Origin: Candidatus Multivoradales bacterium
Lineage (GTDB): Bacteria; Acidobacteriota; Thermoanaerobaculia; Multivoradales; Multivoraceae
Direction of reading: 5' to 3'
Assembly (NCBI GenBank): GCA_965223325.1
Contig: CBDCWI010000002.1
Location: 672,001-736,000, forward strand
DNA length: 64,000 nt
In this document: one piece after another, positions 25,810-52,491 of the stretch
Layout: each line of letters opens with the position of its first letter
Position numbering within the stretch: the first letter of the stretch is position 1
Notes under the pieces: model-generated
Seen by the model: the letters and a program-made list of their open reading frames with translations, nothing else
Databases searched by the model: none
What the model was told of the DNA's origin: nothing
Program-made: the position numbers and the translations under genes

Positions 25810-26703
25810 GTGTCAGAGAAAAGGATTTTCACTCTCGGTGTTCCGATGGACCTCGGCCAGTCGCGGCGTGGGGTCGACATGGGGCCGTACGCGGTGCGCT
25901 ACGCCGGTCTCAACCGTGGGTTGCGCGCCCTTGGCCATCGCGTTTTCGACCGCGGCAATGTCGACATTCCAGAGCGTGACACGCTTGAGCCAGGGGGTGG
26001 GATGGACTACCTGCCCGAGGTCGCCCTCGCCTGTCAGTCGATCTACGAAACTGCCGCTGAGCTGGCCGAAGGGGGTGGCATTCCCCTCTTCCTCGGCGGC
26101 GACCATTCGATCGCCCTGGCAACCGTCGGGGGTGTCAGCCACAGCCGAGACGTTGGTTTGCTTTGGGTCGACGCCCATGGTGACTTCAACACCCCCGAGA
26201 CCTCGCCATCGGGAAACATCCATGGCATGCCCCTGGCGGCGCTCCTGGGTCGCGGCGCTCCCGAGCTCGTCGACCTCGGCCGCAAGGGGGCCAAGCTCGA
26301 CGCCTCACAGGTGGTGTTGATCGGCATTCGCGATCTCGACGCTCTCGAGCGCGTCGCCCTCCGCGAATCGGGCGCCACCGTCTACACGATGCACGACATC
26401 GATGAGCTCGGCATGGCAACCGTTGCCGCGCAGGCGCTCGACCAGCTGACGAAGTTCGAGTCGCTCCACGTGAGCCTCGACATGGACAGCATCGACCCCA
26501 ACCAGGCACCGGGCGTCGGGACGCCTGTACCGGGGGGCATCACCCGGCGTGAGGCGCACCTGTTGATGGAGATCATTGCCGAGCGCGCCAACGTCGGCTC
26601 GGTCGACGTGGTCGAGGTCAACCCGATTCTCGATCACAAGAACGAAACCTCGGTTCTCGCCTGTGGCCTGGTGGCGTCGCTGTTTGGTAAACGGATCTTC
26701 TAG
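25810..26703 (+). CDS. rocF: Arginase
   Basis: [33 protein letters not shown]. Confidence 0.95.
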
Positions 26704-26812
26704 TGACCCGTGGTTTTCGGCCTTTTGTGATGTGCACCTTTCTTTGAAGGCGGTGCTTGGGGGGTGGCGATTTCGGGTAGGCGGAGCGTCGTTTACCACG
26801 GGTCACTAGAAG
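26697..26812. repeat. 18-bp perfect inverted repeat (TAG...CTA hairpin cap of the repeat family)
   Basis: CTTCTAGTGACCCGTGGT (26697-26714) / ACCACGGGTCACTAGAAG (26795-26812); overlaps the arginase stop codon. Confidence 0.85.
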
Positions 26813-26827
26813 GTCACTTTTGCGGCG

Positions 26828-28736
26828 ATCGCGGTAGGAGCGCCGGTTGCCCGGCGCCCCCCGCACAGATCCCAGCGTGCACTGCTAATGCACTGGGCTC
26901 CTGCCTCAGGTATTGACGACAAGTCGCTCATCAGGCCAGGGATGTTGGACTCGGGCTTTGGGTAGGTAGTGGGCCACCAGGGCCCACATCCGTTTCCAGG
27001 ACGTGCGGTCTTTGTCACTGCGTCGGCGCAGAGCGCGCATCCAGTGCCGAATGACCTCCTGTCGAAAGGCGTTCAACGCCGCTGAGTTGCCGGGTACGCC
27101 GTAGTAGGCATTGAAGCCTCGCACCACGGATCCCAGCCAGAGACCTTGCTCTGGTAGCGGCGAGTGTCGGTGTCCCAGAAGGGCCGTACCGACAGCCTTC
27201 AGTGTCCTGCGGATTCGGTGGCGGCTCGTGATGCGCTTCAGCAAGAACCTCCCTCGACTAGACTGCGCACAGCAGTGCGTAAAGCCTAGAAACTCGAAGG
27301 TCTCCGGCCGCCCGAGACCTCGCGCGCGTCGGTTGTAGGCCGCAAAGCGGCCAAACTCCAGCAGGCGCGTCTTCTCGGGTTGGATCTCCAACGAGAAGTC
27401 ACGGAGTCGCAGGTTCAGTTCCTCGAGGAATCGTTCTGCCTCCTCCTGCCTCTCAAATCCAACGATGAAGTCATCCGCGTAGCGCACGAAGATCATGTCC
27501 CCAAGCGCGTTGCGTTTCCTCCACTGCTGGACCCAGAGATCGAGCACGTAGTGCAGGTACACGTTCCCGAGGAGAGGCGAAATCGTCGCCCCCTGAGGAG
27601 TCCCCCGCGTGCTCGCGTGCCACTTACCGTCTTCCATCACTCCGGACCTCAGCCATTTCTGGATGAGGCGAAGGATCCTACGGTCTCCGATACGGTGCTC
27701 GAGAAACTTCACCAGCCACTCGTGGTCCAGGGCATCGAAGAACCCACGAATGTCTGCGTCGAGCACCCAGTTCACCTTCCGCTTTGTGATTCCAACGAAT
27801 AGCGCATCCAAAGCATCGTGCTGGCTGCGGCCTCGCCTGAATCCGTATGAGTACCCGAGAAAGTCTTCCTCGTAGATCGCATCCAACACCGAGACGACGG
27901 CGCGCTGAAGGATCTTGTCCTCCAACGTGGCGATGCCAAGCGGTCGGAACCGCCCATCCGATTTCTCGATGTAGACGCGACGAGTCGCACTCGCCCGGTA
28001 GCTCCCACGGTGGACACGAGAGTGCAGGTCCTCGAGATTGCTCAGCAAAGATTCTGCGTACTCGCTCCATGACACTCCGTCCACTCCTGCCGCTGCGTCT
28101 CGGTGCAACACGTCAAATGCGCTCCGGAGTCGCTCGACCGTGATGTGGTGAAGAAGCGCTGTGAACTTCACTTCCTTGCCCCTGCGGGCGGCTTCTCGTA
28201 CACGGCCCAGCGCATTGCTCGCACTCTCCATCCGGCTCTGTGTCCGGGGTGCGTTTTGCTTGCCCGTGTTCCCCTTGGCCAGGCCCCTTCCCTCCACCGC
28301 CTCCGCCGCTGGTCTCCCACCGTTGTTCGACGACTTCGCAGGTACTACGGGCCTGTCTGACTTCCGCCATCCGTGCGTCATCGGCTTACGGCCTCTAGCC
28401 TTCCCGATGCGGACCAGATACCCAACTGGCCAGATCGCGGATCTCCCGGTTCTCGCGCATGGAGATTCCACACATGCACAGGGTCTACGACCGCGGGGAG
28501 TCGCCGCAGAGCTCGCGATAGCGCGCTACGGAGTCTCGCCTTCCGCTTCGCTTGACAGCGTCGGCACTCCCAAATTCTTATTTCGCGGCTCAATACCCGG
28601 CCTGTGTGTGCCCCTGTCAACGCTTCACCGCACCCTCGCGGGAGCCGGCGCATGACTCGGGGACCCTCTGGGTCGCTACCCCTTCGAGGGTGGGACTCTC
28701 TCATTCCTTTCTCCATGCCGGTTTATCCCGGCGTAT
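26828..28736 (-). mobile_element. Group II intron copy 1 (En-minus, bacterial class E-like)
   Basis: RT ORF followed by domain V (gAGCccagtgc...gcacgctgggatc) and domain VI ending CCTACCGCGAT; reverse complement of 50364-52272; 5' end +/-1 nt. Confidence 0.93.
26906..28381 (-). CDS. ltrA: Group II intron reverse transcriptase/maturase
   Basis: RPLGI, YGFR, DIRGFFD, GTPQGATISPLL, RYADD, FLGF, maturase X domain, no HNH; start MTHGWRKSD. Confidence 0.95.
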   Translation of the reverse strand: MTHGWRKSDRPVVPAKSSNNGGRPAAEAVEGRGLAKGNTGKQNAPRTQSRMESASNALGRVREAARRGKEVKFTALLHHITVERLRSAFDVLHRDAAAGVDGVSWSEYAESLLSNLEDLHSRVHRGSYRASATRRVYIEKSDGRFRPLGIATLEDKILQRAVVSVLDAIYEEDFLGYSYGFRRGRSQHDALDALFVGITKRKVNWVLDADIRGFFDALDHEWLVKFLEHRIGDRRILRLIQKWLRSGVMEDGKWHASTRGTPQGATISPLLGNVYLHYVLDLWVQQWRKRNALGDMIFVRYADDFIVGFERQEEAERFLEELNLRLRDFSLEIQPEKTRLLEFGRFAAYNRRARGLGRPETFEFLGFTHCCAQSSRGRFLLKRITSRHRIRRTLKAVGTALLGHRHSPLPEQGLWLGSVVRGFNAYYGVPGNSAALNAFRQEVIRHWMRALRRRSDKDRTSWKRMWALVAHYLPKARVQHPWPDERLVVNT

Positions 28737-28738
28737 CC

Positions 28739-29383
28739 AAGCGGTCCGATGGGAGGGCCGGCTTCACCAGGCGGCCGCCCTGCAGGTGCGACCGTGGACT
28801 GCGATCGACCGTCGCGCGCCGCGGATTCGTGGCTTCGTTGGAGCGGTGGATCTTAGGGACTCCGAGGGAAGCAGTCCGACTGAGGGCCGGCTTCGCTGGG
28901 CGCTAAACCCTGCAGGTGCGGCTGTGGACTGCGATCGACCGTCGCGCGCCGCGGATTCGGGCCCCCGTTGGAGCGGTGGATCTCAGGGACTCCGAGGGAA
29001 GCAGTCCGACTGAGGGCCGGCTTCGCTGGGCGCTAAACCCTGCAGGTGCGGCTGTGGACTGCGATCGACCGTCGCGCGCCGCGGATTCGGGCCCCCGTTG
29101 GAGCGGTTGATCTCAGGGACTCCGAGGGAAGCAGTCCGACTGAGGGCCGGCTTCGCTGGGCGCTAAACCCTGCGGGTGCGGCTGTGGACTGCGATCGACC
29201 GTCGCGCGCCGCGGATTCGGGTCCCCGTTGGAGCGGTGGATCTCAGGGACTCCGAGGGAAGCAGTCCGACTGAGGGCCGGCTTCGCTGGGCGCTAAACCC
29301 TGCAGGTGCGACTGTGGACTGCGATCGACCGTCGCGCGCCGCGGATTCGGGTCCCCGTTGGAGCGGTGATCTTAGGGACTCCG
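28739..29383. repeat. Tandem array of five ~130-bp units abutting the intron 5' end
   Basis: Units start at 28739, 28869, 28999, 29129 and 29259 (AAGCAGTCCGACTGAGGG...); units 2-5 nearly identical, unit 1 more diverged. Confidence 0.95.
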
Positions 29384-29513
29384 CTGGATCCGGCCTCTAG
29401 GGGCCCGGGCCACTTGTCATCCAACCTTTCGCCGCAAGCGCTCGGCCGCCGCCACCGGTCATGGCTCCGATCAGACTGCGGCTCGTTGATCCACCGCCCC
29501 TGGGACCTGGTCG

Positions 29514-29975
29514 TCAGACGCCGCCCATCTTGCAGACGATCTTCCATTCTCTCGGGGTCACGCGCTGTACAGATAGGCGCTGGCCTTTGCGCAGGAGGGC
29601 CATGCCTTCTAGATCGTCACGCTCTCGCAGCTCGGCTAGCGACACGAATCTGGGGAAGGTGCGCACATATTCCAGGTCGACCAGGAACCAGCGCGGCTTC
29701 TCCTTCGTCGCTTTGGGATCGAAGTACTTGCTCTTCTCGTCGAACTGGGTCGGGTCGGGATAGGACTCTTTTGAAACCTTGGCTAGACCCGCGACTCCGG
29801 GCGGCTTGGCGTTCGAGTGGTAGTACAGAACTCCATCGCCTAGCTTCATTTCGTCACGCATCAGGTTGCGGGCCTGGTAGTTGCGCACGCCGTCCCAGTA
29901 GGTGGTGTTATCACGCTCGAGATCGTCGATCGAGTAGACGTCGGGCTCACTCTTCATCAACCAGTACTGGGCCAT
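29514..29975 (-). CDS. EVE domain-containing protein
   Basis: YWLMKSEP, WDGVRNYQARN, YYHSN, RLSVQ. Confidence 0.93.
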   Translation of the reverse strand: MAQYWLMKSEPDVYSIDDLERDNTTYWDGVRNYQARNLMRDEMKLGDGVLYYHSNAKPPGVAGLAKVSKESYPDPTQFDEKSKYFDPKATKEKPRWFLVDLEYVRTFPRFVSLAELRERDDLEGMALLRKGQRLSVQRVTPREWKIVCKMGGV

Positions 29976-30111
29976 GAGGGCACCCTCCTCGGTGCATTCG
30001 ATGTTGGTTTCAAGAGGGAGCGCACAGGCTATCGCGTGAACACGGCGGCGTGACATCTCTCGGACTGGCCCTCGCCACAGTAGGGCCACATCGCTCTGCT
30101 AGTTTCGCTCC

Positions 30112-30567
30112 ATGGTCAGAAGGATTCTTCTCGCTCTCGGCCTCGGCAGTCTCGTCGGACTGCTGGTTGGCTGCCAGCCGTCGACCATCGTCGAATCGCC
30201 GTCGCCCGACGGCAGGTCGATCGCCTTGATCAAGAGTCATTTCGCCTTTGACGGGCCCAGCCACAGCCTGTGGCTGGCCGGGGCCGCGGGCGAGGTTCTC
30301 CTCGAACGTCTCGGTGAAGACACGCATTGGGCGAGCGACGTCGCGTGGTCACAAGATAGCGAGCTGGTTGGTTTCCTGGTTCGCGATGACCAGGTGTTGG
30401 TCTACGACCGCGACCGTGGCCGGCTGGTCGCAGACATCGAGGTGCCTGACCACACCACATCACTTCGTTCCCTGGTTGTCGAAGACGGCGCGGTGAAGGT
30501 TCGCTTCGAGGGTTGTGAGGCTGGACCCAACGGCTCGACGGACTGTGAGGCGCTCGCGAGGCGGTGA
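30112..30567 (+). CDS. Hypothetical lipoprotein (TolB-like propeller fragment)
   Basis: LVGC lipobox; SPDGRSIA, WSQDS. Confidence 0.6.
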   Translation: MVRRILLALGLGSLVGLLVGCQPSTIVESPSPDGRSIALIKSHFAFDGPSHSLWLAGAAGEVLLERLGEDTHWASDVAWSQDSELVGFLVRDDQVLVYDRDRGRLVADIEVPDHTTSLRSLVVEDGAVKVRFEGCEAGPNGSTDCEALARR

Positions 30568-31658
30568 GCGCCCTGGGTCACCACCTGAACCACTGGAGGC
30601 GAGTCAGCTGGTTTCCGATTCTGCTGGTCCTGTTCGTTCTCGGTTGCCGAGCCGAACAGCCAGCCAGGCCATCCGCAGGCGTCGCGACCTGCCCGCAGTC
30701 GTTACCCCTTCTGGTCTCGGAGGATGACCTGAGCCCTGCTCAGGTCTCTGTTGAACGCCTGGCCGCCTGGACCAAAGCGCTCTCGGCCTCGGAACTCTCC
30801 GGACGCAGCAACTATCGCGCCGAAGAGAGCGCGCGTGTCGCTCGATCGATCCGGGACGCCTTTCTTGAAACCGGCGTCGAACCGCCACCTGGCAACAGAG
30901 GCTACTGCCAGGGCATCGACTTCGAACCCGTCCTCTACAACGTCATCGGGCATGTCGGGCGATCGTCGCGCCCTGGGCGCCCGGAGAAGCCTGTGGTGGT
31001 GCTGGCTGCACACTACGACGGCCAGGGCACCACGCCGGCGGGAAAGCTCCTACCAGGGGCCGACGACAATGCCTCCGGCGTGGCCGCTCTGCTCGAGGTT
31101 GGCCGGTTGCTGTCCGAGCGCGAGCTGGCGGTTGAAGTGGTGTTGCTGGCCACTGCCGGAGAGGAGATCGGGCGGCTCGGTGCGCTGCGCTATGCCAACG
31201 CCCCGACGGTTGATCCCGCGCGCATCGAAGCGGTCTTCGCCCTCGACATGGTCGGGCGGACCACGCTGGGCGTTGGCTCGGGTCTCGGGTACCGGCTCGC
31301 GAGTCCCGGAGAGGGCGACCCGGAGGCGCAGGCGAAATGGCAGGCGACTCTAGAGCGACGCGGCCTGCCCGCCGTCGACCTGGCGGCGGCAGAGAACCCC
31401 ACGGCGGCAGATGCAGAAGCCGAACACACCGGGGACCCACGCGAGCCCGAACCTGCCAGCGAAGCCGCGGCCCTGGCGAAGCAGATGGCCGGCGCCGTGT
31501 CAGACGCCGATGCCTTCGCGGCCATCGCTCCCAGCATCCTGATCACCACCGGCCTTCACCGCGACTGGCATCAGACGAGCGACAGTTGGGAGAAGGTCGA
31601 CCCGCACCGCACTGCCGAGGTCGTGCGCGCGATGGTCGACATGATCACCAACTGGTGA
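30564..31658 (+). CDS. M28 family metallopeptidase, lipoprotein
   Basis: VLGC lipobox; AHYD, GADDNASG, GEE, LDM, HxxxD. Confidence 0.88.
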   Translation: MSALGHHLNHWRRVSWFPILLVLFVLGCRAEQPARPSAGVATCPQSLPLLVSEDDLSPAQVSVERLAAWTKALSASELSGRSNYRAEESARVARSIRDAFLETGVEPPPGNRGYCQGIDFEPVLYNVIGHVGRSSRPGRPEKPVVVLAAHYDGQGTTPAGKLLPGADDNASGVAALLEVGRLLSERELAVEVVLLATAGEEIGRLGALRYANAPTVDPARIEAVFALDMVGRTTLGVGSGLGYRLASPGEGDPEAQAKWQATLERRGLPAVDLAAAENPTAADAEAEHTGDPREPEPASEAAALAKQMAGAVSDADAFAAIAPSILITTGLHRDWHQTSDSWEKVDPHRTAEVVRAMVDMITNW

Positions 31659-31684
31659 TCTGGCTTCCTACTCTCGCCTCTGGG

Positions 31685-32785
31685 CTACTGGGCCTCGACG
31701 CGAATCCCGCCCGAGCCAGTGTCGAGGTGCACTCGAGCGTCGCCGCTACCGACGATCACCCGCGCGAAGTCGCGGCTGCTTTTCACGATACGCGCGTCAG
31801 GCGCGTCGATATGAATACCGCCGCTGCCGGTATCGGCTTCGATCTGAGCCGAGGCATCGGACGGTAAGAGGAGCGTAATCGAGCCGGAGCCGGTATCGAT
31901 CGTGAAGTCGCCGTCGCCCATTTCGGTGAGCGTCAGCTCGACGCCGCCACTGCCGGTGTCGATGGTGGCGCTCTCGGTGCTGACGTCGCGCGCCCGGACG
32001 CCGCCTGAACCGGTGTCGATCTCGAGCTCTCGAGTGCGGATCCCTGAGACCGACACCCGACCGCTGCCAGTGTCGACCTGCACATGCTGCCCGTCGACCG
32101 AGACCGCGGTGACCTGGCCACTGCCGGTGTCGATCTCGAGCTCGCCGACGATCTCCGCCACCTCGACTTCGCCCGAACCGGTATCGATCATCACCCGCCC
32201 TTCGATGTCCTCCGCTCGCACGACTCCAGCATGGGAGTCGAGCGTTATGTCACCGTCGACGTTGGCCGCCATGATGTCGCCGACACCGTGTAGCACCACG
32301 AGCTCGGCGCCGCGCGGCACTTCGACCCGCACATCGGCCCACAGGTGCTTGCCACCCCCGTGTTTGGAGACCTTGATGCGCCCGCTACCGAACACAGCGT
32401 CCATGAGCTCGGCAACAAGCCCCTTTTCCCGACGCTCCCAGTGTCGGAGTTCGAGGGTGGCGTTGCCCGCCGGGTAGACGTACCGACGGGTGTCCTTGGG
32501 AAAGACGATGCCCAGGATGCCGCGCCGCTCATCGACCTCATAGTCGATCGCACCATCTCGGTAGTCCTTCCCACCAGGAGTCACGGTCACGACGAACTCC
32601 GAGCCCGAACCGCCGGTGACGTTGATCTCGCCGATCAAGTTGCCGATCACCAGTCGGTCGCTACCGAAGCGGAACTCCTCAGCCGCGGCCGGGCCGGCGG
32701 TCAACGCCAGGGCAACAACCAGAAAGAGAGAGGCGGTAAAGACGCGCGCGAGTGGAATGCCAGGAAACAGTGTGCTGCGGTTCAT
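31685..32785 (-). CDS. DUF4097 family beta-strand repeat protein
   Basis: Signal peptide; repeated (I/V)DTGSG units about 19-21 aa apart. Confidence 0.85.
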   Translation of the reverse strand: MNRSTLFPGIPLARVFTASLFLVVALALTAGPAAAEEFRFGSDRLVIGNLIGEINVTGGSGSEFVVTVTPGGKDYRDGAIDYEVDERRGILGIVFPKDTRRYVYPAGNATLELRHWERREKGLVAELMDAVFGSGRIKVSKHGGGKHLWADVRVEVPRGAELVVLHGVGDIMAANVDGDITLDSHAGVVRAEDIEGRVMIDTGSGEVEVAEIVGELEIDTGSGQVTAVSVDGQHVQVDTGSGRVSVSGIRTRELEIDTGSGGVRARDVSTESATIDTGSGGVELTLTEMGDGDFTIDTGSGSITLLLPSDASAQIEADTGSGGIHIDAPDARIVKSSRDFARVIVGSGDARVHLDTGSGGIRVEAQ

Positions 32786-32888
32786 CTGAGGTCAGCTCCC
32801 AGTGGGTGTTTGGTCTCGTTGGATCTATAGAGACGCCAGCGCCGCGGGTTTGTTTCACTACCCCGGCGACTCGACGGCCCGCGGCAGG

Positions 32889-34046
32889 TCAGAAGCCCGG
32901 CCCGAGGGCCGTCTTGGACGCCGCGCCTTCCTCCTCGTAGACGAACCGCGGTACCAGATAGCCCGGCACCGTCGCCCGCAGGCGAGCCTCGAGAGCCCGC
33001 GCCTCCTGCCTCGGGACCTCGAAGTGGGCGGCTCCCTGAACCCGGTCGAGGAGGTGGAGGTAGTAGGGCTGCACCCCGACCTCGAGCAGGCGTTCCGACA
33101 ACCTTTTCTGGGTCTCCACCTCGTCATTGATCCCGCGCAGGAGGACCGCCTGATTGAGCAGAGTGATCCCGCGCGCGCGCAACGGCTCGAGCGCCCGCGC
33201 CACCCTGGGGCTGAGCTCGTGGGGATGGTTGGCGTGCAGGACCACCACGACCTGGAGCGGCGTACGGTCGACCCACTCGAGAAGCGCTTCGTCGACCCGC
33301 TCGGGGAGAACCACCGGGGTTCGGGTGTGGATCCGCAAGGTCTCGAGATGAGGAATGCGACCGAGCTTCTCGACCAGAGGCGCGAGCAGCTCATCGGGCA
33401 CCGTCAACGGGTCACCTCCACTCAGAATCACCTCACGCACGGACGGTGTCTCGGCGAGCGCTTCGAGCGCAGGCTCAGGATCAACGGCAAGACGGTGGTC
33501 GGCATAGGGAAAATGACGACGAAAACAGTAGCGACAGTGAACCGCGCAGGCGCCGGTCACCACCAGGAGCGCCCTGCCCGGGTACTTCCTCAGCACCCCG
33601 GGAGTCCCGTCGTGGGCGCCAGCGAGCTCACCCACCGGGTCGATGGTGAAACCAGCCACCGCCAACGTCTCCTCCTGGCGTGGCAACACCTGAAGCAGCA
33701 GCGGATCGTTCCGATCGCCCCCACGCATCTGGGCGACAAAGCCCCAGGGCACCCGCAGCGGGAAGCCATGCGAAGCAGCTGTGTCTTCCGGCAACGCCTC
33801 GAGACCGAGGGCGGTCAGCAGTTCACGCGGATTCTTGATCGCGCGTGCCAGCTCTTTCTGCCACTGACCGCGGGGCCACGAGGGCTCGGCACGGAAATCG
33901 TCACGCAGCGGGCTCGGGCGACGAACTCGAGGCGGTTTGACGGCCTCGGGGGGCCGCAGAGCCTTCTCGATGGCAGCTTCGAGAGCCGCGTCATCTTCGA
34001 AAGCCGGCGACGGCTCAGATGGCCTGTGGTTGGGAGCGGTTGACAT
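32889..34046 (-). CDS. epmB: EF-P beta-lysylation protein (lysine 2,3-aminomutase)
   Basis: [36 protein letters not shown]; divergent from efp. Confidence 0.93.
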
Positions 34047-34115
34047 GACTGGGTCTCGGGCGGCAGTGTACCGGCTCATCGTCTGGAACCCACTACCCTC
34101 CGCAGGGACTCCACC

Positions 34116-34682
34116 ATGGCTACCTACAACCACAATCAGTTTCGCGTCGGCCTCAAGGTCCTGATCGACAACGATCCGTGTGTCGTCACCGACTGCGACT
34201 TCATCAAGCCCGGCAAGGGTCAGGCCTTCACGCGCATCAAGTACAAGAACCTGCTCACCGGCCGGGTGCTCGAGCGCACCTTCAAGTCAGGCGAGACGGT
34301 CGAAGGCGCCGACGTCGTCGATACCGACATGCAGTTCCTCTACGGTGACGGTGAGACCTGGAACTTCATGAACCCGGAGTCCTATGAGCAGGTCGAAGCC
34401 AACGCCGAGACCGTGGGCGACGCTGCCCAGTGGATCAAGGAGCAGGACATCTGCCAGGTCACCCTGTGGCGCGGCAACCCGATTCTGGTCACCGCCCCGA
34501 ACTTCGTCGAGCTCGAGATCACCCAGGCCGACCCGGGCGTCAAGGGCGATACCGCGAGCGGTGGCACCAAGCCCGCTACCCTCGAAACCGGCGCGGTCGT
34601 CAAGGTCCCGCTGTTCGTCGAGCAGGGTGAGCGCATCAAGGTCGACACCCGAAACGGCGAGTACGTCTCACGCGCCAAGTAG
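34116..34682 (+). CDS. efp: Elongation factor P
   Basis: [33 protein letters not shown]. Confidence 0.97.
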
Positions 34683-34712
34683 GCGACGAGCGACTCCTCT
34701 GCCACCGGCAAC

Positions 34713-35732: not shown

Positions 35733-35811
35733 AAACTACGAGGGCTGAGCCACCGGCGCCAGAGACGGCCCCACCGTTCAAACCGTCCTGGTGTCAAACC
35801 GTCTCGGTGCT

Positions 35812-36981: not shown

Positions 36982-37038
36982 GAAGCAATTCCATCACGCC
37001 CACTGCCGAACAGTCCGCACCGAGAGCCCATCCCACCC

Positions 37039-37605: not shown

Positions 37606-37630
37606 GCCTCGCAGAACCCCTCGCCGGCGC

Positions 37631-40013: not shown

Positions 40014-40048
40014 GACACCGAGTCACCCACCCACCAACGAGTCTTCCC

Positions 40049-41433: not shown

Positions 41434-41452
41434 GGTCTTACTGAAGAATCCC

Positions 41453-42730: not shown

Positions 42731-42828
42731 ACCCGGGCATCCTTTCAGGTCTCTGAGCCTCGGAAGGAGCGGCACGGGAGCCGGCAGTTGGCCGGCACTG
42801 CGGAGTAGGCTGGCTCCCCGGTGAACCC

Positions 42829-42864
42829 CCTCTGAAGACCCCTTTGAAGACCCCTCTGAAGACC
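42829..42864. repeat. 3 x 12-bp direct repeat CCTyTGAAGACC
   Basis: 42829-42840, 42841-42852 and 42853-42864, in the MFS/rarD divergent gap. Confidence 0.8.
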
Positions 42865-42869
42865 GCTGT

Positions 42870-43787: not shown

Positions 43788-43908
43788 CCAACCACCTCCA
43801 CTCCACCGCACCCTCCGTCACGCCAACGCCCAGGTCGCGAGGACACGCCAGAGCCTCTCCCCGAGGTGACCGACCGCGAGTTCTAGAGGGACGGAGCGTC
43901 CTTCCATA

Positions 43909-43955
43909 TGACAGGCTCCTGTCTTCTTGACAGCTCTCTGTCATTTCGACATACT
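43909..43955 (+). promoter_or_regulatory. sigma70 promoter with two overlapping TGACAG-N4-CTGTCW operators
   Basis: TTGACA 43927-43932, 17 nt, CATACT 43950-43955; palindromes at 43909-43924 and 43928-43943. Confidence 0.75.
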
Positions 43956-43962
43956 TCTGTCC

Positions 43963-44508
43963 ATGACGGACGCACGACCCCTCAGCGCCCCCCGCCGGGC
44001 TGTCGCCGATCCCACGATCGGCTCGCTGATGCGTGAGACCTCCAGCCTCAACGGCCGCTTCCAGGAAGCCTCCGAGCGCGCCGGCCGACTCGGCGGCCTC
44101 AGCTTCGCCCACTGGCAAGTCGTCGCCGAGGTCGCGCCCCGCCCCTACACCGTCGCCCAGGTCGCCAGGCGCCTCAACCTCGCCCGTCAAAGCGTCCAGC
44201 GCACCGTCGACCTCCTGGTGCGCGACGGCTACCTCGAGCTCCGCCCCAACCCCGACCACCGCACCTCGCTCCTCGTCACCCCCACTGAAACCGGCCGTCT
44301 GGCCCTCGACACCGCAGCCCATGCCCAGGTCGAGTGGACTCGCCAGCTCGCCGAAACCGTCAACCCACCAGAAGTCGAGGCGGCCGTCGATCTGATGCGG
44401 CAGATCAGCCATCGCCTCGACCAGATCGAGATCGAGCTCGCGCTCCCCGAAAACGACCTCGCCGACCCGACCTCGAACGACGAAAGAACGTCGCAAGGAG
44501 ATAAGTAG
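43963..44508 (+). CDS. MarR family transcriptional regulator
   Basis: TVAQVARRLNLARQSVQRTVDLL...NPDHR winged HTH. Confidence 0.9.
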   Translation: MTDARPLSAPRRAVADPTIGSLMRETSSLNGRFQEASERAGRLGGLSFAHWQVVAEVAPRPYTVAQVARRLNLARQSVQRTVDLLVRDGYLELRPNPDHRTSLLVTPTETGRLALDTAAHAQVEWTRQLAETVNPPEVEAAVDLMRQISHRLDQIEIELALPENDLADPTSNDERTSQGDK

Positions 44509-44874
44509 ATGTCACGAGTGACCCTGATCAACCCGTTCGAAGTCGAGGCGAGTCGCGAACTCGAGTTCCTCGGCTACTGGCAACAGGCGATGAACTTCCT
44601 CAAACGTCGCCCCGGCTTTCTCGAGTCGGAACTCGTTCGAGCGCGTGACCCCCACGCCCGCTTTCGGTTCACCAGTCTGCAGACCTGGAACTCAGCAGAT
44701 GACTTTCACCGTGCCATCCAGCACCCGGACTTCGTGACCATCCTCGATCGGATGCCCTTCCCCCACTACGCCACTCTCTACGAACCCTTCCTCAAAGCCC
44801 ACCCCGACCCGGGACCGCTTCGCCCGCCAGTCTCCGACCAGGCAGCCAGCGCTTCCGCCCATCCCCCAGCCTGA
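44509..44874 (+). CDS. Antibiotic biosynthesis monooxygenase (ABM) family protein
   Basis: VTLINPFEV, PGFLES, W.S..DF; RBS AAGGAG. Confidence 0.8.
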   Translation: MSRVTLINPFEVEASRELEFLGYWQQAMNFLKRRPGFLESELVRARDPHARFRFTSLQTWNSADDFHRAIQHPDFVTILDRMPFPHYATLYEPFLKAHPDPGPLRPPVSDQAASASAHPPA

Positions 44875-45017
44875 GGCTCCCACCCCCTTGCAGCACCCGA
44901 TCTAGAACCAGACCCGCTACGCGCTCGTTGGGCACCCAGAGCCGCGTACACGATCCCCTTGCCCCCGCTGGCCATCGTGGCCACGGGGGTTTCTTTTCTC
45001 GCGCCACCCGACAAGCG

Positions 45018-46586
45018 CTAGGAACGCGCAGCGCCGCGCAGCTCGCGGCGCAGAATCTTGCCCACCCCGCTCTTGGGCAGCGCGTCCACGAACTGAATGG
45101 CGGAAGGTGCCTTGAAGGGCATGGTGTGCTCCTTCACGAACCCGACGAGCTCGGCCTCTGTCGCTTGGGCGCCGCCCTTGAGGGCCACGAAGCCCACGAC
45201 CTTTTCACCATAGGTCTCATCCGGCGCGCCGACAATGGCAGCCTCGGCGACCGCGGGATGCTGATAGAGAATGCTTTCGAGCTCGGCCGGGTAGATGTTC
45301 TCGCCGCCTTTGATGATCATGTCCTTCTTGCGGTCAACGATGAACAGAAAACCTTCTTCGTCGAGATACCCCACGTCGCCGGTGTGCAGCCAGCCGCCCT
45401 GAATGGCCTCGGCTGTCGCCTCGGGACGGTTCATGTACCCCATCATGACGGTCGGCCCCTTGAGAACCACTTCACCACGCTCCCCCGCCGGCAGGACCGC
45501 GCCAGAATCGTCGACGATGCGAAGTTCAGTCTCCGAGTACGCGCGCCCCGCCGAGCCGGGCCTGTACGCGTCGGACGGGCGATTGGCGCTCGCGATGCCG
45601 GCGCTTTCGGTCATGCCATAGATCTCACGCAACCGGCAGCCGTAGCGCGCGGCGAAGGCGTTGGCCAGTTCCACCGGCAACGGCGCCGCCCCGCAAACGA
45701 CCTCTTCAAGACTCGACAGGTCGTACTCGGCGTTCTTCGGATGGTTGAGAATCAGCGCCAGCATCGTCGGCACCGCCGGCATCGAACTGCAGCGGTGCTC
45801 CTCGACGAGGGCCATGAAACGCTCGGGCTCGAACCAGCTCATTTGCACCATGTAGCCATCTGCCAGACGCTCGGGCACCAGGTAGCCACCGTTCATCACC
45901 CCGACTCCGAAGATGTGGGCCATCGGCATCGCAGAGATGCTGATGCGCGGAGCCTCGAGCGTCTCGAGCTCGGCAGCATCGGCCGACTGACGCGCAGAAG
46001 CGATCAGGTTTCCATGCGACAGCATGGCGCCCTTCGGTCGGCCCGTGGTGCCCGAGGTGTACAGCATGAGCGCGAGATCGTCTTCGGGAATCTCCGGCAG
46101 CTCGGTGCGCGGTTGGTGAGCGAGGAGCTCGGCCAGCGAAACTTCCGTCACTGCCCGGGCCAGGGACTCTCCGCCGTCACTCGTGACGTTCTTGGCATCG
46201 CGGATCACGATCAGCTCGATCGCGGGAAGCTCCTGGGCCACCTGACGCACCTTCTCCAGGTTCGCCGCATCGGTGAACACGCAACGGGCTCGCGTGTCGT
46301 CGAGAATGAACTGCAACTCTGGCGGCGCCAGCTGTGGCATCACCGGCAGCGCCGCGGCACCGGTGCGAAAGACACCCTGGAAGACCGGGTAGACGTCCGG
46401 GTGGTTCGTCAGACACAACGCCGCGATATCGCCGCGGCCAATGCCCCGTTCCGCGAGACCGGCGTGCAGCCGCCGTGCACGCTCCAGGAACTGCTTGTTG
46501 GAGTAACTCTCGCCCTCGAAGACCAACGTTCGGCGTTCTCCGAGGCGCTCGAGCGAGCTTTCGGCGAGCGTCGCCAGATTGTTCAT
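45018..46586 (-). CDS. Long-chain acyl-CoA synthetase (AMP-binding)
   Basis: YTSGTTGRPKG, YGMTE, GWLHTGD, DRKKD, LPKSGVGK. Confidence 0.92.
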   Translation of the reverse strand: MNNLATLAESSLERLGERRTLVFEGESYSNKQFLERARRLHAGLAERGIGRGDIAALCLTNHPDVYPVFQGVFRTGAAALPVMPQLAPPELQFILDDTRARCVFTDAANLEKVRQVAQELPAIELIVIRDAKNVTSDGGESLARAVTEVSLAELLAHQPRTELPEIPEDDLALMLYTSGTTGRPKGAMLSHGNLIASARQSADAAELETLEAPRISISAMPMAHIFGVGVMNGGYLVPERLADGYMVQMSWFEPERFMALVEEHRCSSMPAVPTMLALILNHPKNAEYDLSSLEEVVCGAAPLPVELANAFAARYGCRLREIYGMTESAGIASANRPSDAYRPGSAGRAYSETELRIVDDSGAVLPAGERGEVVLKGPTVMMGYMNRPEATAEAIQGGWLHTGDVGYLDEEGFLFIVDRKKDMIIKGGENIYPAELESILYQHPAVAEAAIVGAPDETYGEKVVGFVALKGGAQATEAELVGFVKEHTMPFKAPSAIQFVDALPKSGVGKILRRELRGAARS

Positions 46587-48220
46587 GGGCCAGCTGCCTC
46601 GGCGAGCGCGGGGGCGTCTTTGGCTACCCAATTGCCATGGAACCCGAGTGGAAAGTGGTTGCCCGTCCACACCCGGGCGGCAAAATCGAGTGTTTCTGCG
46701 TCGCGAATCTCGAGAAAGTTCTCATCGCGCGGCGCGTCATAGCCCTGCACCAGGAGCCAGCCGTCGACTTCATCCTTGGCGCTCTGGCGTGCAACGAAAA
46801 CCGTCTCGCCAAACGCACGTCCCGAACCAGCTTCGACCCGGTCGGCGCTCTTCTTGTGCAGGTCATGACGCACCAAAGCGGTCAAAGCGAACTGATCGTC
46901 TGGAATGGTGCTCTCCATCGTGTAGAGATAGCGCGCATCCTGACCGACGTGCCGGGTGTTGAAGCGTGGGAACTCCTGATCGTTCTCGAGCTCGGTACGG
47001 CTCGCGACCTGACCGCTCTCGAGGTCGAGCTCGAGACGTGTCAAGCGGGGTTCATCCGCCGGCGGTAGCTTGTCGTTGGCAAACGAGTGCAGGAGCTCGA
47101 GCACGCTGTCGTCGCGGGTCAGAATGGTGTCGACCACCAGGAGGCGCTCGCGCTCGAAGGCATTGCCATTGTGGAACACCATGTTGGCCGGCTGCTCGAA
47201 GACCTGCGGCTCACCAGTCCCGTCGCGCCGCAGCACCAGGAAGCGAGTCGGTTCCTGCTCGAGGTATCGCAGCGCGTCGGCGACGTTGGTCTTGCCGGCC
47301 AGGAGCACCGGCAGGTCGAAACTCACCGGCGGAATGACGAACACGATGTGGTTCTTGGTCAAGAGCATGTCGTGGATCATGAAGTAGCGCGACTGGGGCA
47401 CCGAGTGGAGTGTCTCGAGAGTGCCGTCGGGCTTCATCTTGAAGACCGTCAAGGAGAAGCCTGGCCCCTGCGCGATGCCGTAACCGTAAGTCTCGCCGGT
47501 GGTCGGGTCGTGTTTCGGATGGGCGGTGAAGGGGATGTAGGGCGGCAAGGTGCCGTGAAAATCCCATCGACCCTGGAAGGCGAAGGTCTCTGGGTCGATC
47601 GCCGTCGGATGGCCGCCTTCGGAGAGACCCAGCAGGCGGCCGTCCCAGGCGATGACATTGACGTTGGGCTGGTTCTTGAACAGCACCCGCTCCATCGGAC
47701 GGGCTGGCTCCTGGGAGCCAGTGGCGGCTTCGACCCGTGCTGCGGGTGGGAGAGTGCCGAACTCGGCGTACAACATCTCGCCCGCCTCGAGCTCGGCCTG
47801 GCGCTCGGGTGTGGGTACAAAACCGGCGCGCAGGGAGACCTTGCCGTCCTCGATCTTGAAAGCGGACACGAAGGGATCGCCGTCGAAGAGGTGCTGCAGC
47901 TCGGTGCCATGGTTCTCGCTCTGGCCGGGCGCGATACGAAACAGGGTGCCGGCGAGATCGGTCGGCACACGGCCCTCGACCTCACTGAGCTGCCATCGGC
48001 CTTCGGCACCGGCAGTGCGGTTGGCCATCCAACTCAGGCGACGGGGACTCTCTGCCAGGGCTCGGGTGACGAACTGCGGGTCGAGACAGCCCAGCGCACC
48101 GAGCACCGAAACCAGACCGGCGAAATCGCGGCGCGTCATGCCGGAGGTGCTCTGGGTCCGACACGAGGGAAAGGGAATGGACCGACGGTGCCCGATGTTG
48201 AAGGATTCGTTACGCGGCAT
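46583..48220 (-). CDS. Carotenoid/lignostilbene cleavage dioxygenase family protein with twin-arginine signal
   Basis: HLFDGD, four Fe-ligand His (TAHPK, MIHD, FHNGN, GFHGNW), EFPR; TRRDF + hydrophobic stretch + ALA; RBS AGGAGG. Confidence 0.88.
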   Translation of the reverse strand: MPRNESFNIGHRRSIPFPSCRTQSTSGMTRRDFAGLVSVLGALGCLDPQFVTRALAESPRRLSWMANRTAGAEGRWQLSEVEGRVPTDLAGTLFRIAPGQSENHGTELQHLFDGDPFVSAFKIEDGKVSLRAGFVPTPERQAELEAGEMLYAEFGTLPPAARVEAATGSQEPARPMERVLFKNQPNVNVIAWDGRLLGLSEGGHPTAIDPETFAFQGRWDFHGTLPPYIPFTAHPKHDPTTGETYGYGIAQGPGFSLTVFKMKPDGTLETLHSVPQSRYFMIHDMLLTKNHIVFVIPPVSFDLPVLLAGKTNVADALRYLEQEPTRFLVLRRDGTGEPQVFEQPANMVFHNGNAFERERLLVVDTILTRDDSVLELLHSFANDKLPPADEPRLTRLELDLESGQVASRTELENDQEFPRFNTRHVGQDARYLYTMESTIPDDQFALTALVRHDLHKKSADRVEAGSGRAFGETVFVARQSAKDEVDGWLLVQGYDAPRDENFLEIRDAETLDFAARVWTGNHFPLGFHGNWVAKDAPALAEAAGP

Positions 48221-48389
48221 GCTGCCTCCTTTGTCCGGCTGAAAGAAACCTGCTGATCGAAAAGCACTGCCGACTGACGGACGGTGCGGCCGGCCAACGG
48301 TTAGAGTCGGCTCGATCCCGAGAGGGCCTACGCACCCCTCGCGACCCAAACAGTCTCTCACCCCTCGCAAGATAGCTGGAGTTTCTCAG

Positions 48390-48638
48390 ATGGTCCGACT
48401 CTACTTCGATCGTTCTTGTCCCTTCTGCCAACGCGTGTTGCGCTACCTCGACTCCACCGAGATCGAGTGGGAGGCGCGCGAGCTTTCGACCCGTCAGGAC
48501 TCCGACAACCGCAACGAGCTCATCGAGCTCGGCGGGAAATCTCAGGTGCCGTTTCTGGTCGACGACAGCCGCGACGTCAAGATGTACGAGAGCGGCGACA
48601 TCATCGACTACCTCGAAGAGCACTACGCCGCCGCTTGA
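48390..48638 (+). CDS. Glutaredoxin/GST N-terminal domain protein
   Basis: CPFC, GGKSQVPFL, MYESGDII. Confidence 0.88.
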   Translation: MVRLYFDRSCPFCQRVLRYLDSTEIEWEARELSTRQDSDNRNELIELGGKSQVPFLVDDSRDVKMYESGDIIDYLEEHYAAA

Positions 48639-48788
48639 GGGCAGAACCGCCCGCACCACGCGGGGCTGTGGGGTGGGCTACACTGCCGATCCCTTTGTGA
48701 CCGACTGATTGCGCAGAGCACACTGCCTACCAGGCCGCCGCACGGCTGCCTCGAGGGCCATCGTGTGCATGCTGGAAGGAGCTTTTCG

Positions 48789-49787
48789 ATGACCAGAACC
48801 CGCCAGGTCCACCTCGCCGCCCGCCCCGAAGGCCGTCCCGATCCGAGCCACTTCAAAGTCGTCGAGATGGACTTGCCCGAACCGGGCGACGGCGAATTCC
48901 TGGTCGAGAACGAGTTCATGACGGTCGATCCGTACATGCGAGGCCGCATGCGGGACGTCAAATCGTACGTGCCACCCTTCCAGATCGACGAAGTCCTCGA
49001 CGGCGGCTCGGTGGGGCGCATTGTCAGTTCCAACAACCCCGACTGGAAAGAGGGCGAGTGGGTTCTCGGAGGCCAGGGCTGGCGCGAGCACTACATCAGT
49101 GACGGCACCGGCCAGCGCAAGATCGATCCGGAGATCGCTCCCCCTTCGGCCTACCTGGGCGTTCTGGGAATGCCGGGCATGACGGCCTACATCGGCCTGC
49201 TCGACCTCGGTGAGCCCAAAGAAGGCGAAACGGTCTTCGTCTCCGGCGCCGCCGGTGCGGTCGGCAGCGTCGTCGGCCAGATCGCCAAGATCAAGGGTTG
49301 CCACGTTGCCGGTAGCGCCGGCTCGGCTGACAAGGTCAAACACCTCATCGACGATCTCGGCTTCGACAGTGCCTTCAACTACAAAGACGGCGATCTGCAC
49401 AAACAGCTCGCCACCGCCTGCCCCAATGGCATCGACATCTACTTCGAAAACGTCGGCGGGCCGATGCTCGAAGCGGTGCTGATGCACATGAAGCCCTTCG
49501 GTCGAATCCCGGTGTGCGGAATGATCTCGCAGTACAACGCGACCGAGCCGGTCCCCGGGCCGAAGACCATCATTCAGGTCATTCCCAACCGCCTCAAGAT
49601 CCAGGGCTTCATCGTCTCCGACCATTTTGACCGGCTCCCTGAGTTCACCCGCGATGTCGCCGGCTGGATCAGGGAAGGCAAGATCAAGGCCCGCGAGACC
49701 ACCTTCGAAGGCATCGAGAAGGCACCCGATGCCTTCATCGGCCTGTTCTCCGGGGAGAACCTGGGGAAGATGCTCGTCAAGTTGTAG
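48789..49787 (+). CDS. NADP-dependent oxidoreductase (CurA/PTGR family)
   Basis: VDPYMRGRM, GMPGMTAY, SGAAGAVGS, YFENVGG, CGMISQYN, GENLGK. Confidence 0.92.
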   Translation: MTRTRQVHLAARPEGRPDPSHFKVVEMDLPEPGDGEFLVENEFMTVDPYMRGRMRDVKSYVPPFQIDEVLDGGSVGRIVSSNNPDWKEGEWVLGGQGWREHYISDGTGQRKIDPEIAPPSAYLGVLGMPGMTAYIGLLDLGEPKEGETVFVSGAAGAVGSVVGQIAKIKGCHVAGSAGSADKVKHLIDDLGFDSAFNYKDGDLHKQLATACPNGIDIYFENVGGPMLEAVLMHMKPFGRIPVCGMISQYNATEPVPGPKTIIQVIPNRLKIQGFIVSDHFDRLPEFTRDVAGWIREGKIKARETTFEGIEKAPDAFIGLFSGENLGKMLVKL

Positions 49788-50363
49788 CGAGGGGCGCGGT
49801 CGTCAACGATTTGGTCGTCGGTTGGCGTACCTCGAGCAAGATGCATGGTTGGCGTTCGTACCACACCCCTCGCTACAGTCACCCTTGCGGCGATCGCGGT
49901 CCGGTGTGTCGGCCGCCTTCGTGGGCGCTCGCCCTGCAGGTGCGTCTTTGGACTTTGAAGGTCCGGCGCGCGCCGCGGATTCTTGGCTTCGTTGCCGCGC
50001 TCTACGCGTCCGGAAATGGAGTCCTTTCGCATCGTGCCTGCTGACCTTGAGGGAACAGTGCGCGTCGCGGGTTCTGGCCTTCGTTGCCACGCTCTGCGCG
50101 TCCGGACATGGAGTCCTTGTGCATCGCAAATGAAGGAGTGCGTTCGGGGCAACTAACCAACCCGGCCGCGGCGGCGGGCAGCACACTCCGGCGAAAAGGT
50201 GTCAACCGGCCGTTCGCCAGGAAACCCATGCTCCCTACGCGTTCTCACGATCCACGTTTCATCGAAGGCAAGAATCCGCGGCGCGCGCTCGAACCCTCGA
50301 ACGCCAAAGACGCGCCGGCAGGGCGAGCGCCCACAAAGGCCGCCCCCACAACGGACCGCTTGG

Positions 50364-52272
50364 ATACGCCGGGATAAACCGGCATGGAGAAAGGAATGAG
50401 AGAGTCCCACCCTCGAAGGGGTAGCGACCCAGAGGGTCCCCGAGTCATGCGCCGGCTCCCGCGAGGGTGCGGTGAAGCGTTGACAGGGGCACACACAGGC
50501 CGGGTATTGAGCCGCGAAATAAGAATTTGGGAGTGCCGACGCTGTCAAGCGAAGCGGAAGGCGAGACTCCGTAGCGCGCTATCGCGAGCTCTGCGGCGAC
50601 TCCCCGCGGTCGTAGACCCTGTGCATGTGTGGAATCTCCATGCGCGAGAACCGGGAGATCCGCGATCTGGCCAGTTGGGTATCTGGTCCGCATCGGGAAG
50701 GCTAGAGGCCGTAAGCCGATGACGCACGGATGGCGGAAGTCAGACAGGCCCGTAGTACCTGCGAAGTCGTCGAACAACGGTGGGAGACCAGCGGCGGAGG
50801 CGGTGGAGGGAAGGGGCCTGGCCAAGGGGAACACGGGCAAGCAAAACGCACCCCGGACACAGAGCCGGATGGAGAGTGCGAGCAATGCGCTGGGTCGTGT
50901 ACGAGAAGCCGCCCGCAGGGGCAAGGAAGTGAAGTTCACAGCGCTTCTTCACCACATCACGGTCGAGCGACTCCGGAGCGCATTTGACGTGTTGCACCGA
51001 GACGCAGCGGCAGGAGTGGACGGAGTGTCATGGAGCGAGTACGCAGAATCTTTGCTGAGCAATCTCGAGGACCTGCACTCTCGTGTCCACCGTGGGAGCT
51101 ACCGGGCGAGTGCGACTCGTCGCGTCTACATCGAGAAATCGGATGGGCGGTTCCGACCGCTTGGCATCGCCACGTTGGAGGACAAGATCCTTCAGCGCGC
51201 CGTCGTCTCGGTGTTGGATGCGATCTACGAGGAAGACTTTCTCGGGTACTCATACGGATTCAGGCGAGGCCGCAGCCAGCACGATGCTTTGGATGCGCTA
51301 TTCGTTGGAATCACAAAGCGGAAGGTGAACTGGGTGCTCGACGCAGACATTCGTGGGTTCTTCGATGCCCTGGACCACGAGTGGCTGGTGAAGTTTCTCG
51401 AGCACCGTATCGGAGACCGTAGGATCCTTCGCCTCATCCAGAAATGGCTGAGGTCCGGAGTGATGGAAGACGGTAAGTGGCACGCGAGCACGCGGGGGAC
51501 TCCTCAGGGGGCGACGATTTCGCCTCTCCTCGGGAACGTGTACCTGCACTACGTGCTCGATCTCTGGGTCCAGCAGTGGAGGAAACGCAACGCGCTTGGG
51601 GACATGATCTTCGTGCGCTACGCGGATGACTTCATCGTTGGATTTGAGAGGCAGGAGGAGGCAGAACGATTCCTCGAGGAACTGAACCTGCGACTCCGTG
51701 ACTTCTCGTTGGAGATCCAACCCGAGAAGACGCGCCTGCTGGAGTTTGGCCGCTTTGCGGCCTACAACCGACGCGCGCGAGGTCTCGGGCGGCCGGAGAC
51801 CTTCGAGTTTCTAGGCTTTACGCACTGCTGTGCGCAGTCTAGTCGAGGGAGGTTCTTGCTGAAGCGCATCACGAGCCGCCACCGAATCCGCAGGACACTG
51901 AAGGCTGTCGGTACGGCCCTTCTGGGACACCGACACTCGCCGCTACCAGAGCAAGGTCTCTGGCTGGGATCCGTGGTGCGAGGCTTCAATGCCTACTACG
52001 GCGTACCCGGCAACTCAGCGGCGTTGAACGCCTTTCGACAGGAGGTCATTCGGCACTGGATGCGCGCTCTGCGCCGACGCAGTGACAAAGACCGCACGTC
52101 CTGGAAACGGATGTGGGCCCTGGTGGCCCACTACCTACCCAAAGCCCGAGTCCAACATCCCTGGCCTGATGAGCGACTTGTCGTCAATACCTGAGGCAGG
52201 AGCCCAGTGCATTAGCAGTGCACGCTGGGATCTGTGCGGGGGGCGCCGGGCAACCGGCGCTCCTACCGCGAT
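50364..52272 (+). mobile_element. Group II intron copy 2 (En-minus, bacterial class E-like)
   Basis: Domain V about 52200-52233, domain VI ending CCTACCGCGAT; candidate EBS1 TCAAGCG (50545-50551) pairs with exon CGCTTGG (50357-50363). Confidence 0.93.
50719..52194 (+). CDS. ltrA: Group II intron reverse transcriptase/maturase
   Basis: Protein identical to copy 1 in the ORF track; YADD motif. Confidence 0.95.
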   Translation: MTHGWRKSDRPVVPAKSSNNGGRPAAEAVEGRGLAKGNTGKQNAPRTQSRMESASNALGRVREAARRGKEVKFTALLHHITVERLRSAFDVLHRDAAAGVDGVSWSEYAESLLSNLEDLHSRVHRGSYRASATRRVYIEKSDGRFRPLGIATLEDKILQRAVVSVLDAIYEEDFLGYSYGFRRGRSQHDALDALFVGITKRKVNWVLDADIRGFFDALDHEWLVKFLEHRIGDRRILRLIQKWLRSGVMEDGKWHASTRGTPQGATISPLLGNVYLHYVLDLWVQQWRKRNALGDMIFVRYADDFIVGFERQEEAERFLEELNLRLRDFSLEIQPEKTRLLEFGRFAAYNRRARGLGRPETFEFLGFTHCCAQSSRGRFLLKRITSRHRIRRTLKAVGTALLGHRHSPLPEQGLWLGSVVRGFNAYYGVPGNSAALNAFRQEVIRHWMRALRRRSDKDRTSWKRMWALVAHYLPKARVQHPWPDERLVVNT

Positions 52273-52491
52273 CGCCGCAAAGGTGACGCTCGTAGGGCCC
52301 GTGGTAAGAAGCACGGGCCCTACGAGACCTGAGTGAAACCTACTCAGGGAATATCCCGTATCAGGTGCGGGTTTTCTCAGTCCGTCGATGAAGATTCGCC
52401 GAAGTTGGCCTAGATTTGCTAGATTTCGGTTGCCGATACACCTTCCGTGGCCCTTCGAGGGGCGGAAGCAGCCCCTGGAAGGGAGCACACT

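Follow-up and report, generated by a model that had tools for sequence, protein, structure and literature searches.

Bacterial group II introns persist by means of harmless landing sites, and the known choices are terminators, attC sites and insertion sequences. Here we describe a probable further case, in a 64,000-nt stretch of the genome of a Candidatus Multivoradales bacterium (assembly GCA_965223325.1, contig CBDCWI010000002.1, positions 672,001 to 736,000; G000:C2:672001-736000 in our numbering), which we call the window. The genome, G000, comprises 6.69 Mb in two contigs (C1 and C2) at 64% G+C, and the window holds two copies of a 1910-nt group II intron, at 50363-52272 (+) and 26828-28737 (-), each inserted in a unit of a repeat of about 235 nt. 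We put at roughly 85% the probability that this is an active, endonuclease-less intron homing into a lineage-specific intergenic repeat, which would be a separate element that predates the burst of intron copies. The genome would then offer a clean natural case of a fourth landing-site choice, a large structured intergenic repeat.

The closest described systems each share part of this arrangement. Class C (IIC) and IIC-attC introns, like the present one, lack an endonuclease domain, have a small ribozyme and use a repeated, hairpin-forming non-coding target, and IIC-attC introns share with it an orientation opposite to transcription of the neighbouring gene (PMC4424553, PMC7923331); they insert into or just past attC stem-loops, against cassette transcription (PMC7923331). 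Unlike class C targets, however, the target here is neither a terminator (there is no U-tract, and no terminator-like site in the scanned array) nor attC. Intron-binding site 1 (IBS1) spans 6 bp rather than 3-4 (PMC7923331), which leaves the intron outside class C on that count, and it further differs in a predicted 5-nt domain V loop and a site set by at least 10 conserved bases. RmInt1 of Sinorhizobium meliloti is likewise endonuclease-less and multiplies by homing into the multicopy insertion sequence ISRm2011-2 (PMC1802570), but its target lies inside a protein-coding insertion sequence, whereas the repeat targeted here is structured, non-coding and arranged in tandem, and no transposase is known for it.

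Intergenic repeats have appeared beside group II introns before: two of nine copies in Pseudomonas putida KT2440 are associated with repetitive extragenic palindromes (REP; PMC1525189), and apart from these the limited literature covered here reports no family of intergenic repeats as the homing target of a group II intron. REP and bacterial interspersed mosaic elements (BIME) resemble our repeat in being intergenic, hairpin-forming, multicopy, at times tandem, and landing sites for insertion sequences, and the conserved GTAG of REP has a counterpart in the G/CTAG with which one of our helices, H2, starts. Yet REP/BIME are built on a palindrome of 20-40 nt whereas the unit described here is ~235 nt long with two long-range helices, which sets it apart from them, and 13 of 14 full intron copies sit at one exact nucleotide, unlike the REP case in KT2440. 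In ribozyme traits, there is a likeness to group IIE and IIF introns, which lack an endonuclease domain, have a small ribozyme (450-700 nt) with 5 nt in the domain V loop, and whose splicing needs only the pairing of exon-binding site 1 (EBS1) with IBS1, EBS2 being dispensable (PMC3753933). Our intron likewise has a small ribozyme and no endonuclease domain, and would share the 5-nt loop (UAGCA) if the U-A closing pair is open, whereas its ribozyme, at ~435 nt, falls slightly below that range and its 5' end reads GAUACG; the likeness is a resemblance only and not a class placement. The excerpted texts of PMC3753933, PMC3552965, PMC3522654 and PMC3245105, which supplied the criteria, give no class label for its nearest relatives.

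Intron copies and their boundaries

A blastn census of the genome recovered 14 complete copies, each 1910 nt long, as well as a single 5'-truncated copy, a 3' fragment of 240 nt. All full copies are at least 99.9% identical (12 are identical, and the remaining two differ by 1 and 2 bases), and all 14 carry an intact open reading frame (ORF) of 491 aa. The encoded reverse transcriptase (RT)/maturase scores 342.6 bits against the NCBIfam model TIGR04416 (group II intron RT/maturase; cut-off 300), contains YADD and matches only RVT_1 in Pfam (9e-39). Because RVT_1 is the sole Pfam domain, with no HNH endonuclease match, we take the protein to lack an endonuclease domain, in keeping with the endonuclease-less introns to which a first-pass annotation made from the letters of the window had pointed. 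The Rfam model RF02005 matches both window copies over its full length (1-225) with 180.6 bits (gathering score 49), and folding of 52196-52272 yields domain V and domain VI hairpins (-46.8 kcal/mol, z = -4.2), with a domain V loop of UAGCA provided that the U-A closing pair is open.

The boundaries of the intron were set by data rather than by consensus, a point of some interest given its non-canonical 5' end. Unoccupied units read ...GGACCGCTTG|CGCCGCAARRGTGAC, and occupied ones ...GCTTG|GATACG...CGCGAT|CGCC; no alternative register fits, and since the empty units permit this register only, the intron ends are those given above. The first-pass annotation had recognized two copies with equivalent exons, which we find on both strands and, genome-wide, for 13 of the 14 full copies, but its 5' boundary was off by 1 nt: the last G of the 5' exon it gave, CGGACCGCTTGG, is intron base 1, as the empty units (GCTTG|CGCC) demonstrate. 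An empty allele of the minus-strand copy (copy A) is also present in run X4, where a 1314-nt contig matches 25600-26827 without differences and resumes at 28738, omitting exactly 1910 nt between 26827 and 28738. Read depth over the intron is ~11-14 times that of the flanks in runs X1, X3 and X4.

A structured repeat anchored at stop codons

An nhmmer profile of the 13 upstream flanks finds the repeat at 162 places in the genome, 149 of them unoccupied, and a covariance model, R1, gives 151 matches, including several units in the window; the flanking family that the annotation had described is therefore real, and it is indeed a multicopy intergenic target. Thirty representatives from different arrays align over ~235 nt with a mean column identity of 69%. 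The units form 59 loci, about 35 of which consist of 2-7 units repeated in tandem every 130-325 nt, and two introns were never seen in one array.

RNAalifold predicts two long-range helices: H1, in which GCGGCGCGCG pairs with CGC-UU-GCGCCGC around ~70 enclosed nt, and H2, in which CUAG-N7-CGUGG pairs with CCACG-N7-CUAG around ~85 nt. The intron insertion point falls within the 3' strand of H1 and in the best-conserved part of the repeat. Across 23 helix pairs, 95.4% of cells are paired, compared with 81.4% in shuffles, and 14 of the 23 show changes on both sides; none of 500 shuffles reached the observed pairing values, and sliding the partner lowered pairing to 30-44%. Compensatory changes thus support both H1 and H2, and with them the first-pass description of the repeat as structured. 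Covariation in the MAFFT-based alignment is limited to these two helices, an internal hairpin being seen in single-sequence folds of a region aligned too poorly to count, and H2 contains similar numbers of G-U (11) and A-C (7) pairs, so that a strand signature is absent. The annotation had called the family one it did not recognize; consistent with this, Rfam holds no match (best E-values 0.27-5.5, far below gathering scores), nor do 72,556 plasmids, and the units contain no ORF. A scan of one array found 0 promoter-like and 0 terminator-like sites.

The features of the window are as follows.

25810-26703 (+): ORF ending in a TAG stop
26701-26703: terminal CTA of unit A, the reverse complement of that stop
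26698-26827 (-): 3' exon half of unit A, comprising the H1 3'-strand remainder CGCCGC, the linker AAAAGTGAC and the long hairpin H2
~26796-26812 and 26700-26713 (-): 5' arm and 3' arm, respectively, of H2 in unit A
26828-28737 (-): intron copy A, with its RT/maturase ORF, from the ATG, at 26906-28381; empty allele in X4
28481-28699 (-): RF02005 match (Rfam) in copy A
28738-28845 (-): 5' exon half of unit A, with ...GGACCGCTTG as its final bases (to 28738)
28853-29365 (-): four 5'-half units in tandem, spaced every 130 nt, that lack both the 3' strand of H1 and the domain of H2
48765-49787 (+): ORF whose TAG stop is the reverse complement of the terminal CTA (in the last hairpin arm, 49785-49800) of the intron-free unit
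49784-49999 (-): complete intron-free unit, 134 bits (R1)
50255-50362 (+): 5' exon half of unit B, with IBS1 CGCTTG at 50357-50362
50363-52272 (+): intron copy B, 5' end GATACG, 3' end ...CGCGAT
50401-50619 (+): RF02005 match (Rfam) in copy B
50546-50551 (+): EBS1 CAAGCG of copy B, in a hairpin loop
50719-52194 (+): ORF of copy B, 491 aa, YADD
52196-52272 (+): domains V and VI of copy B, from the fold
52273-52326 (+): 3' exon of unit B, CGCCGCAAAGGTGAC followed by a shorter H2 hairpin with a 15-bp stem and an 8-nt loop
49784-49999, 28723-28845 and 26698-26889 (-), 50255-50377 and 52211-52326 (+), and the four 5'-half units at 28853-29365 (-): R1 matches

These assignments revise two details of the first-pass annotation. 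The tandem array that it placed at 28739-29383 exists, but its members are 130-nt 5' halves and not whole units. The arms at 49878-49994 and 50260-50363 do lie in opposite orientation, as it said, yet they are really parts of two units, one intron-free (49784-49999, -) and one occupied (50255-50362 plus 52273-52326, +).

In both window cases, with ORFs 25810-26703 and 48765-49787, the outer edge of the repeat coincides with the end of a convergent gene, and this arrangement recurs across the genome. At 39 of the 59 loci the last unit's 3' arm of H2 could be identified by script, and these loci were scored against anchor ORFs on the opposite strand with at least 80 codons and a third-position G+C content (GC3) of at least 0.70. 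At 35 of these 39, reverse-complementing the terminal CTA gives the convergent ORF's stop codon (33 TAG, 2 TAA); such an array therefore starts precisely where a gene stops and runs antisense to it, as does the intron. TAG usage stands at 40% in a crude set of 2358 long ORFs, and CTAG occurs 4857 times in the genome against ~22,000 expected.

The repeat has a patchy distribution. Among 57 family genomes in 13 genera, a search with an exact core pattern counts 83 copies in G000, 62 in G005 (a different genus) and one each in G008 and G003, with 0 in the other 53, so that it is abundant in two of the 57 and, in G005, takes a shorter form. The R1 search returned no match in the same-genus genome G001, 22 weak matches to the shorter form in G005, one in G009 and 0 in the remaining 37 relatives searched. 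The G005 element is ~190 nt long, dispersed and near-identical across loci, with CTAG on both sides in 3/3 aligned copies and the same stop-codon arrangement in 2/5; judged from these sequences, it appears to behave as mobile DNA, unlike a conserved RNA gene. Metagenome contigs gave 0 matches to the exact 5' junction, and 48 contigs with a degenerate core pattern were dismissed as chance, since 0/48 match R1 and their flanks are coding.

Covarying architecture, tandem arrays, patchy distribution and a terminal hairpin that holds the stop codon of 35 different genes make the repeat notable in itself. A subfamily carries an additional insert of ~25-35 nt, C5/G5-rich (CCCCCUUGAGGGGG..CCAGGGGG), between H1 and the GUGA linker (G000 C2:4366977-4367521, 4105441-4106047, 4065245-4065485, 3962287-3963474 and 513176; C1:285698 and 291484), and insert-bearing units host two intron copies (C2:512891 and C2:4367654).

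Target recognition and competing explanations

Thirteen of the 14 full copies, together with the truncated copy, share the insertion point GGACCGCTTG|CGCC in otherwise diverged ~235-nt units, the truncated copy having the usual 3' exon and hairpin downstream. The single ectopic copy (C2:2351638) lies where an unrelated acetyltransferase-like ORF begins, and its junction is still CGCTTG|C; unrelated flanks, which the first-pass annotation had named as evidence that would count against it, are thus confined to 1/14 copies. Positions -6 to +1 (CGCTTG plus the first 3'-exon base, C) are invariant at 14/14 sites, and GGAC at -10 to -7 is kept in 11/14. Within the intron, the Rfam alignment places EBS1, CAAGCG, in the domain I hairpin loop UCAAGCGA, complementary to IBS1 (CGCUUG) over 6 bp. 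CGCTTGC is occupied at 13 of 123 occurrences in repeats (110 free) but at only 1 of 1688 outside (1687 free), a ~180-fold preference for the repeat-borne motif; with 13/14 full copies in the family, this excludes a chance association of intron and repeat. The longer motif GGACCGCTTGC occurs 77 times inside repeats versus 13 times outside and is present at 11/14 occupied sites, an enrichment and occupancy that suggest that the intron reads ~10-11 target bases.

We propose that the homing site is approximately GGACCGCUUG|C(GCC), in the most conserved stretch of the repeat. The EBS1 loop of the excised intron RNA would pair with CGCUUG, the first 3'-exon base C would also be read, and the RNA would reverse-splice into the target strand and then be copied into DNA, presumably from replication-fork primers, as the intron has no endonuclease. 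The repeat itself would be a hairpin-rich unit amplified in tandem, with the convergent gene's stop codon in its 3' hairpin. It would offer ~80-110 intact non-coding sites, and it is this abundance that would have allowed a burst to ~15 copies with only one gene disrupted, so that the repeat may serve as a 'safe harbour' for the intron. The mechanism is ordinary retrohoming; the target class is unusual and well populated.

Several observations weigh against this account. Sequence- and structure-guided recognition are confounded within the repeat, and no convincing EBS2 candidate was identified in the intron. The intron's sense strand is the leading strand for 8 copies and the lagging strand for 6; an orientation bias is absent, which is uninformative and leaves fork-dependent priming unsupported. 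With a 3' end in AU (...CGCGAT), the intron departs at its 5' end, GAUACG, from the bacterial boundary rule GUGYG...AY and contrasts there with the canonical GUGUGCG of plasmid-borne relatives (RT identity 56-59%), and RF00029, the model for domains V/VI, gave no match at E<=1. The intron-repeat pairing is known from one genome only, G001 holds a decayed intron relic in an unrelated flank while lacking the repeat, and none of the 16 listed public runs is recorded as RNA.

Recognition might instead be guided by structure in the manner of class C, with a folded single-stranded DNA stem-loop (the upstream hairpin CAGGGCG...CGC, or H1) read together with a short IBS1. We hold this to be possible, though clearly the less probable course: a hairpin of variable sequence does end ~5-10 nt upstream of IBS1 in most units, the insertion site falls within a covarying helix, the ribozyme is small with EBS2 not found, and the intron lies opposite to its anchoring gene just as IIC-attC introns are oriented against cassette transcription (PMC7923331), but the 6-bp IBS1-EBS1 pairing exceeds the 3-4 bp of class C, the ectopic copy keeps CGCTTG|C with no repeat context, the GGAC conserved upstream fits a sequence-based reading, and H1, once formed, base-pairs and hides IBS1. 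A different and unlikely proposal is that the repeat is a multicopy structured non-coding RNA gene and the intron its true intron, with splicing restoring H1. Strong compensatory variation in two long-range helices, the placement of all 13 insertions on one strand of the unit and the retention of motifs across arrays that are otherwise 65-75% identical would suit such a gene; the lack of an Rfam family, the abundance in just two of 57 family genomes with absence from the same-genus genome, the mobile-DNA-like copies of G005, the balance of G-U and A-C pairs in H2, the scanned array devoid of promoter-like and terminator-like sites, and the listed runs, with no RNA among them, all speak against it. 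A further reading, about as doubtful, treats the 235-nt unit as an undescribed structured tandem element, acting as RNA or folded single-stranded DNA, that nucleates exactly at the TAG stops of convergent genes and acts on the 3' ends of those genes, with an intron co-adapted to its most conserved helix whose splicing restores the element; if true, the association would be a partnership of repeat and retroelement that goes beyond parasitism of junk DNA.

Passive spread, in which intron-bearing units were duplicated along with their arrays or moved with the repeat, is conceivable insofar as the repeat is itself tandemly amplified and, in G005, dispersed. It is nonetheless very improbable, because arrays hold one intron at most, copy A has an empty allele, and occupied flanks resemble their own empty siblings rather than each other: over the 100 nt upstream of the site, an occupied unit shares 83-100% identity with an empty sibling from its own array (11/11 with siblings; at least 96% in 9/11), whereas occupied units are only 70-81% identical to one another in their flanks while their introns are at least 99.9% identical. 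The copies thus appear to represent separate homing events and not co-duplication of intron with repeat. Shared flanks alone might also have meant that the 'exons' belong to the intron itself or form the termini of an insertion sequence, an outcome the first-pass annotation had itself foreseen as fatal to its claim. The 149 intron-free units have already disposed of that idea, which the exact junction and precise empty allele, the lack of an ORF in the units and the lack of any match in the 72,556 plasmids leave with next to no credibility.

Homing into the repeat may also have been reversed once. In the intron-free unit (49784-49999) the site is GGACCGC-GAT-CGCC in place of the GGACCGC-TTG-CGCC of other units. 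No second unit of the genome has this sequence, and a deletion between the 5'-exon ACCGC and the ACCGC preceding the intron's last three bases would yield exactly this sequence; the unit is therefore a possible footprint of intron loss, and the GAT replacement would abolish IBS1. Homing-site choice, saturation and loss could readily be studied in this genome, which combines ~100 free sites and a polymorphic empty allele with a very recent burst of copying and a single apparent footprint of deletion. In run X5, from another organism, the intron 5' end is joined (28587-28800) to a 5' exon with 19 differences, all at 28749-28771, and this intron seems to occupy another member of the same repeat family.

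Intron relatives and other mobile elements

The odd 5' end is a trait of this intron's subclade, as plasmid-borne relatives start GUGUGCG while relatives in metagenome-assembled genomes (MAGs; ~60% RT identity) start (A)GUACG or GUAGCG. The MAG relatives in Solirubrobacterales (L005, L007, L011 and L014) lie inside a transposase ORF (..WLPEDHL|..), and those in Gammaproteobacteria (L004, L006, L009 and L010) inside a different repeated intergenic sequence, so that their targets are multicopy too. The nearest plasmid relatives, L152 (Burkholderia cenocepacia pBCJ2315) and L153 (Klebsiella pneumoniae p1220-CTXM), are inserted after ...ACAG of a CTGT-N8-ACAG-like palindrome, at ~330-360 of each locus, adjoining imuA or umuD. 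This palindrome resembles an SOS box, and the plasmid lineage may thus also target a regulatory motif.

Two known kinds of mobile element were compared with the repeat. A miniature inverted-repeat transposable element does not fit, as array 5' ends have no inverted copy of the 3' end, and the G005 element, though CTAG-flanked (3/3), has no terminal inverted repeat. REP-associated tyrosine transposase (RAYT; Y1_Tnp) genes are unsuited as its mobilizer, given that only 1 of 28 hits in the genome lies within 1 kb of a unit; for the two that were scored the best match is REP_Tyr_transpos, but at 66.8 and 37 bits against a cut-off of 80.

On a larger scale, the cumulative GC skew of C1 declines monotonically over the entire contig, and that of C2 turns at ~0.35 and 3.5 Mb, a pattern indicating that the two contigs probably form one chromosome rather than two replicons. 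A RAYT-like Y1 gene present in four copies (G000 C1:968807-972567 and three further; C2:784920, C2:1927785) is flanked by its own inverted repeat, GTCGGGGGGACTTTCCC, an unrelated second repeat family. Many Y1 copies are clustered near contig ends, at C1:2126-2144 kb and C2:4455-4487 kb.

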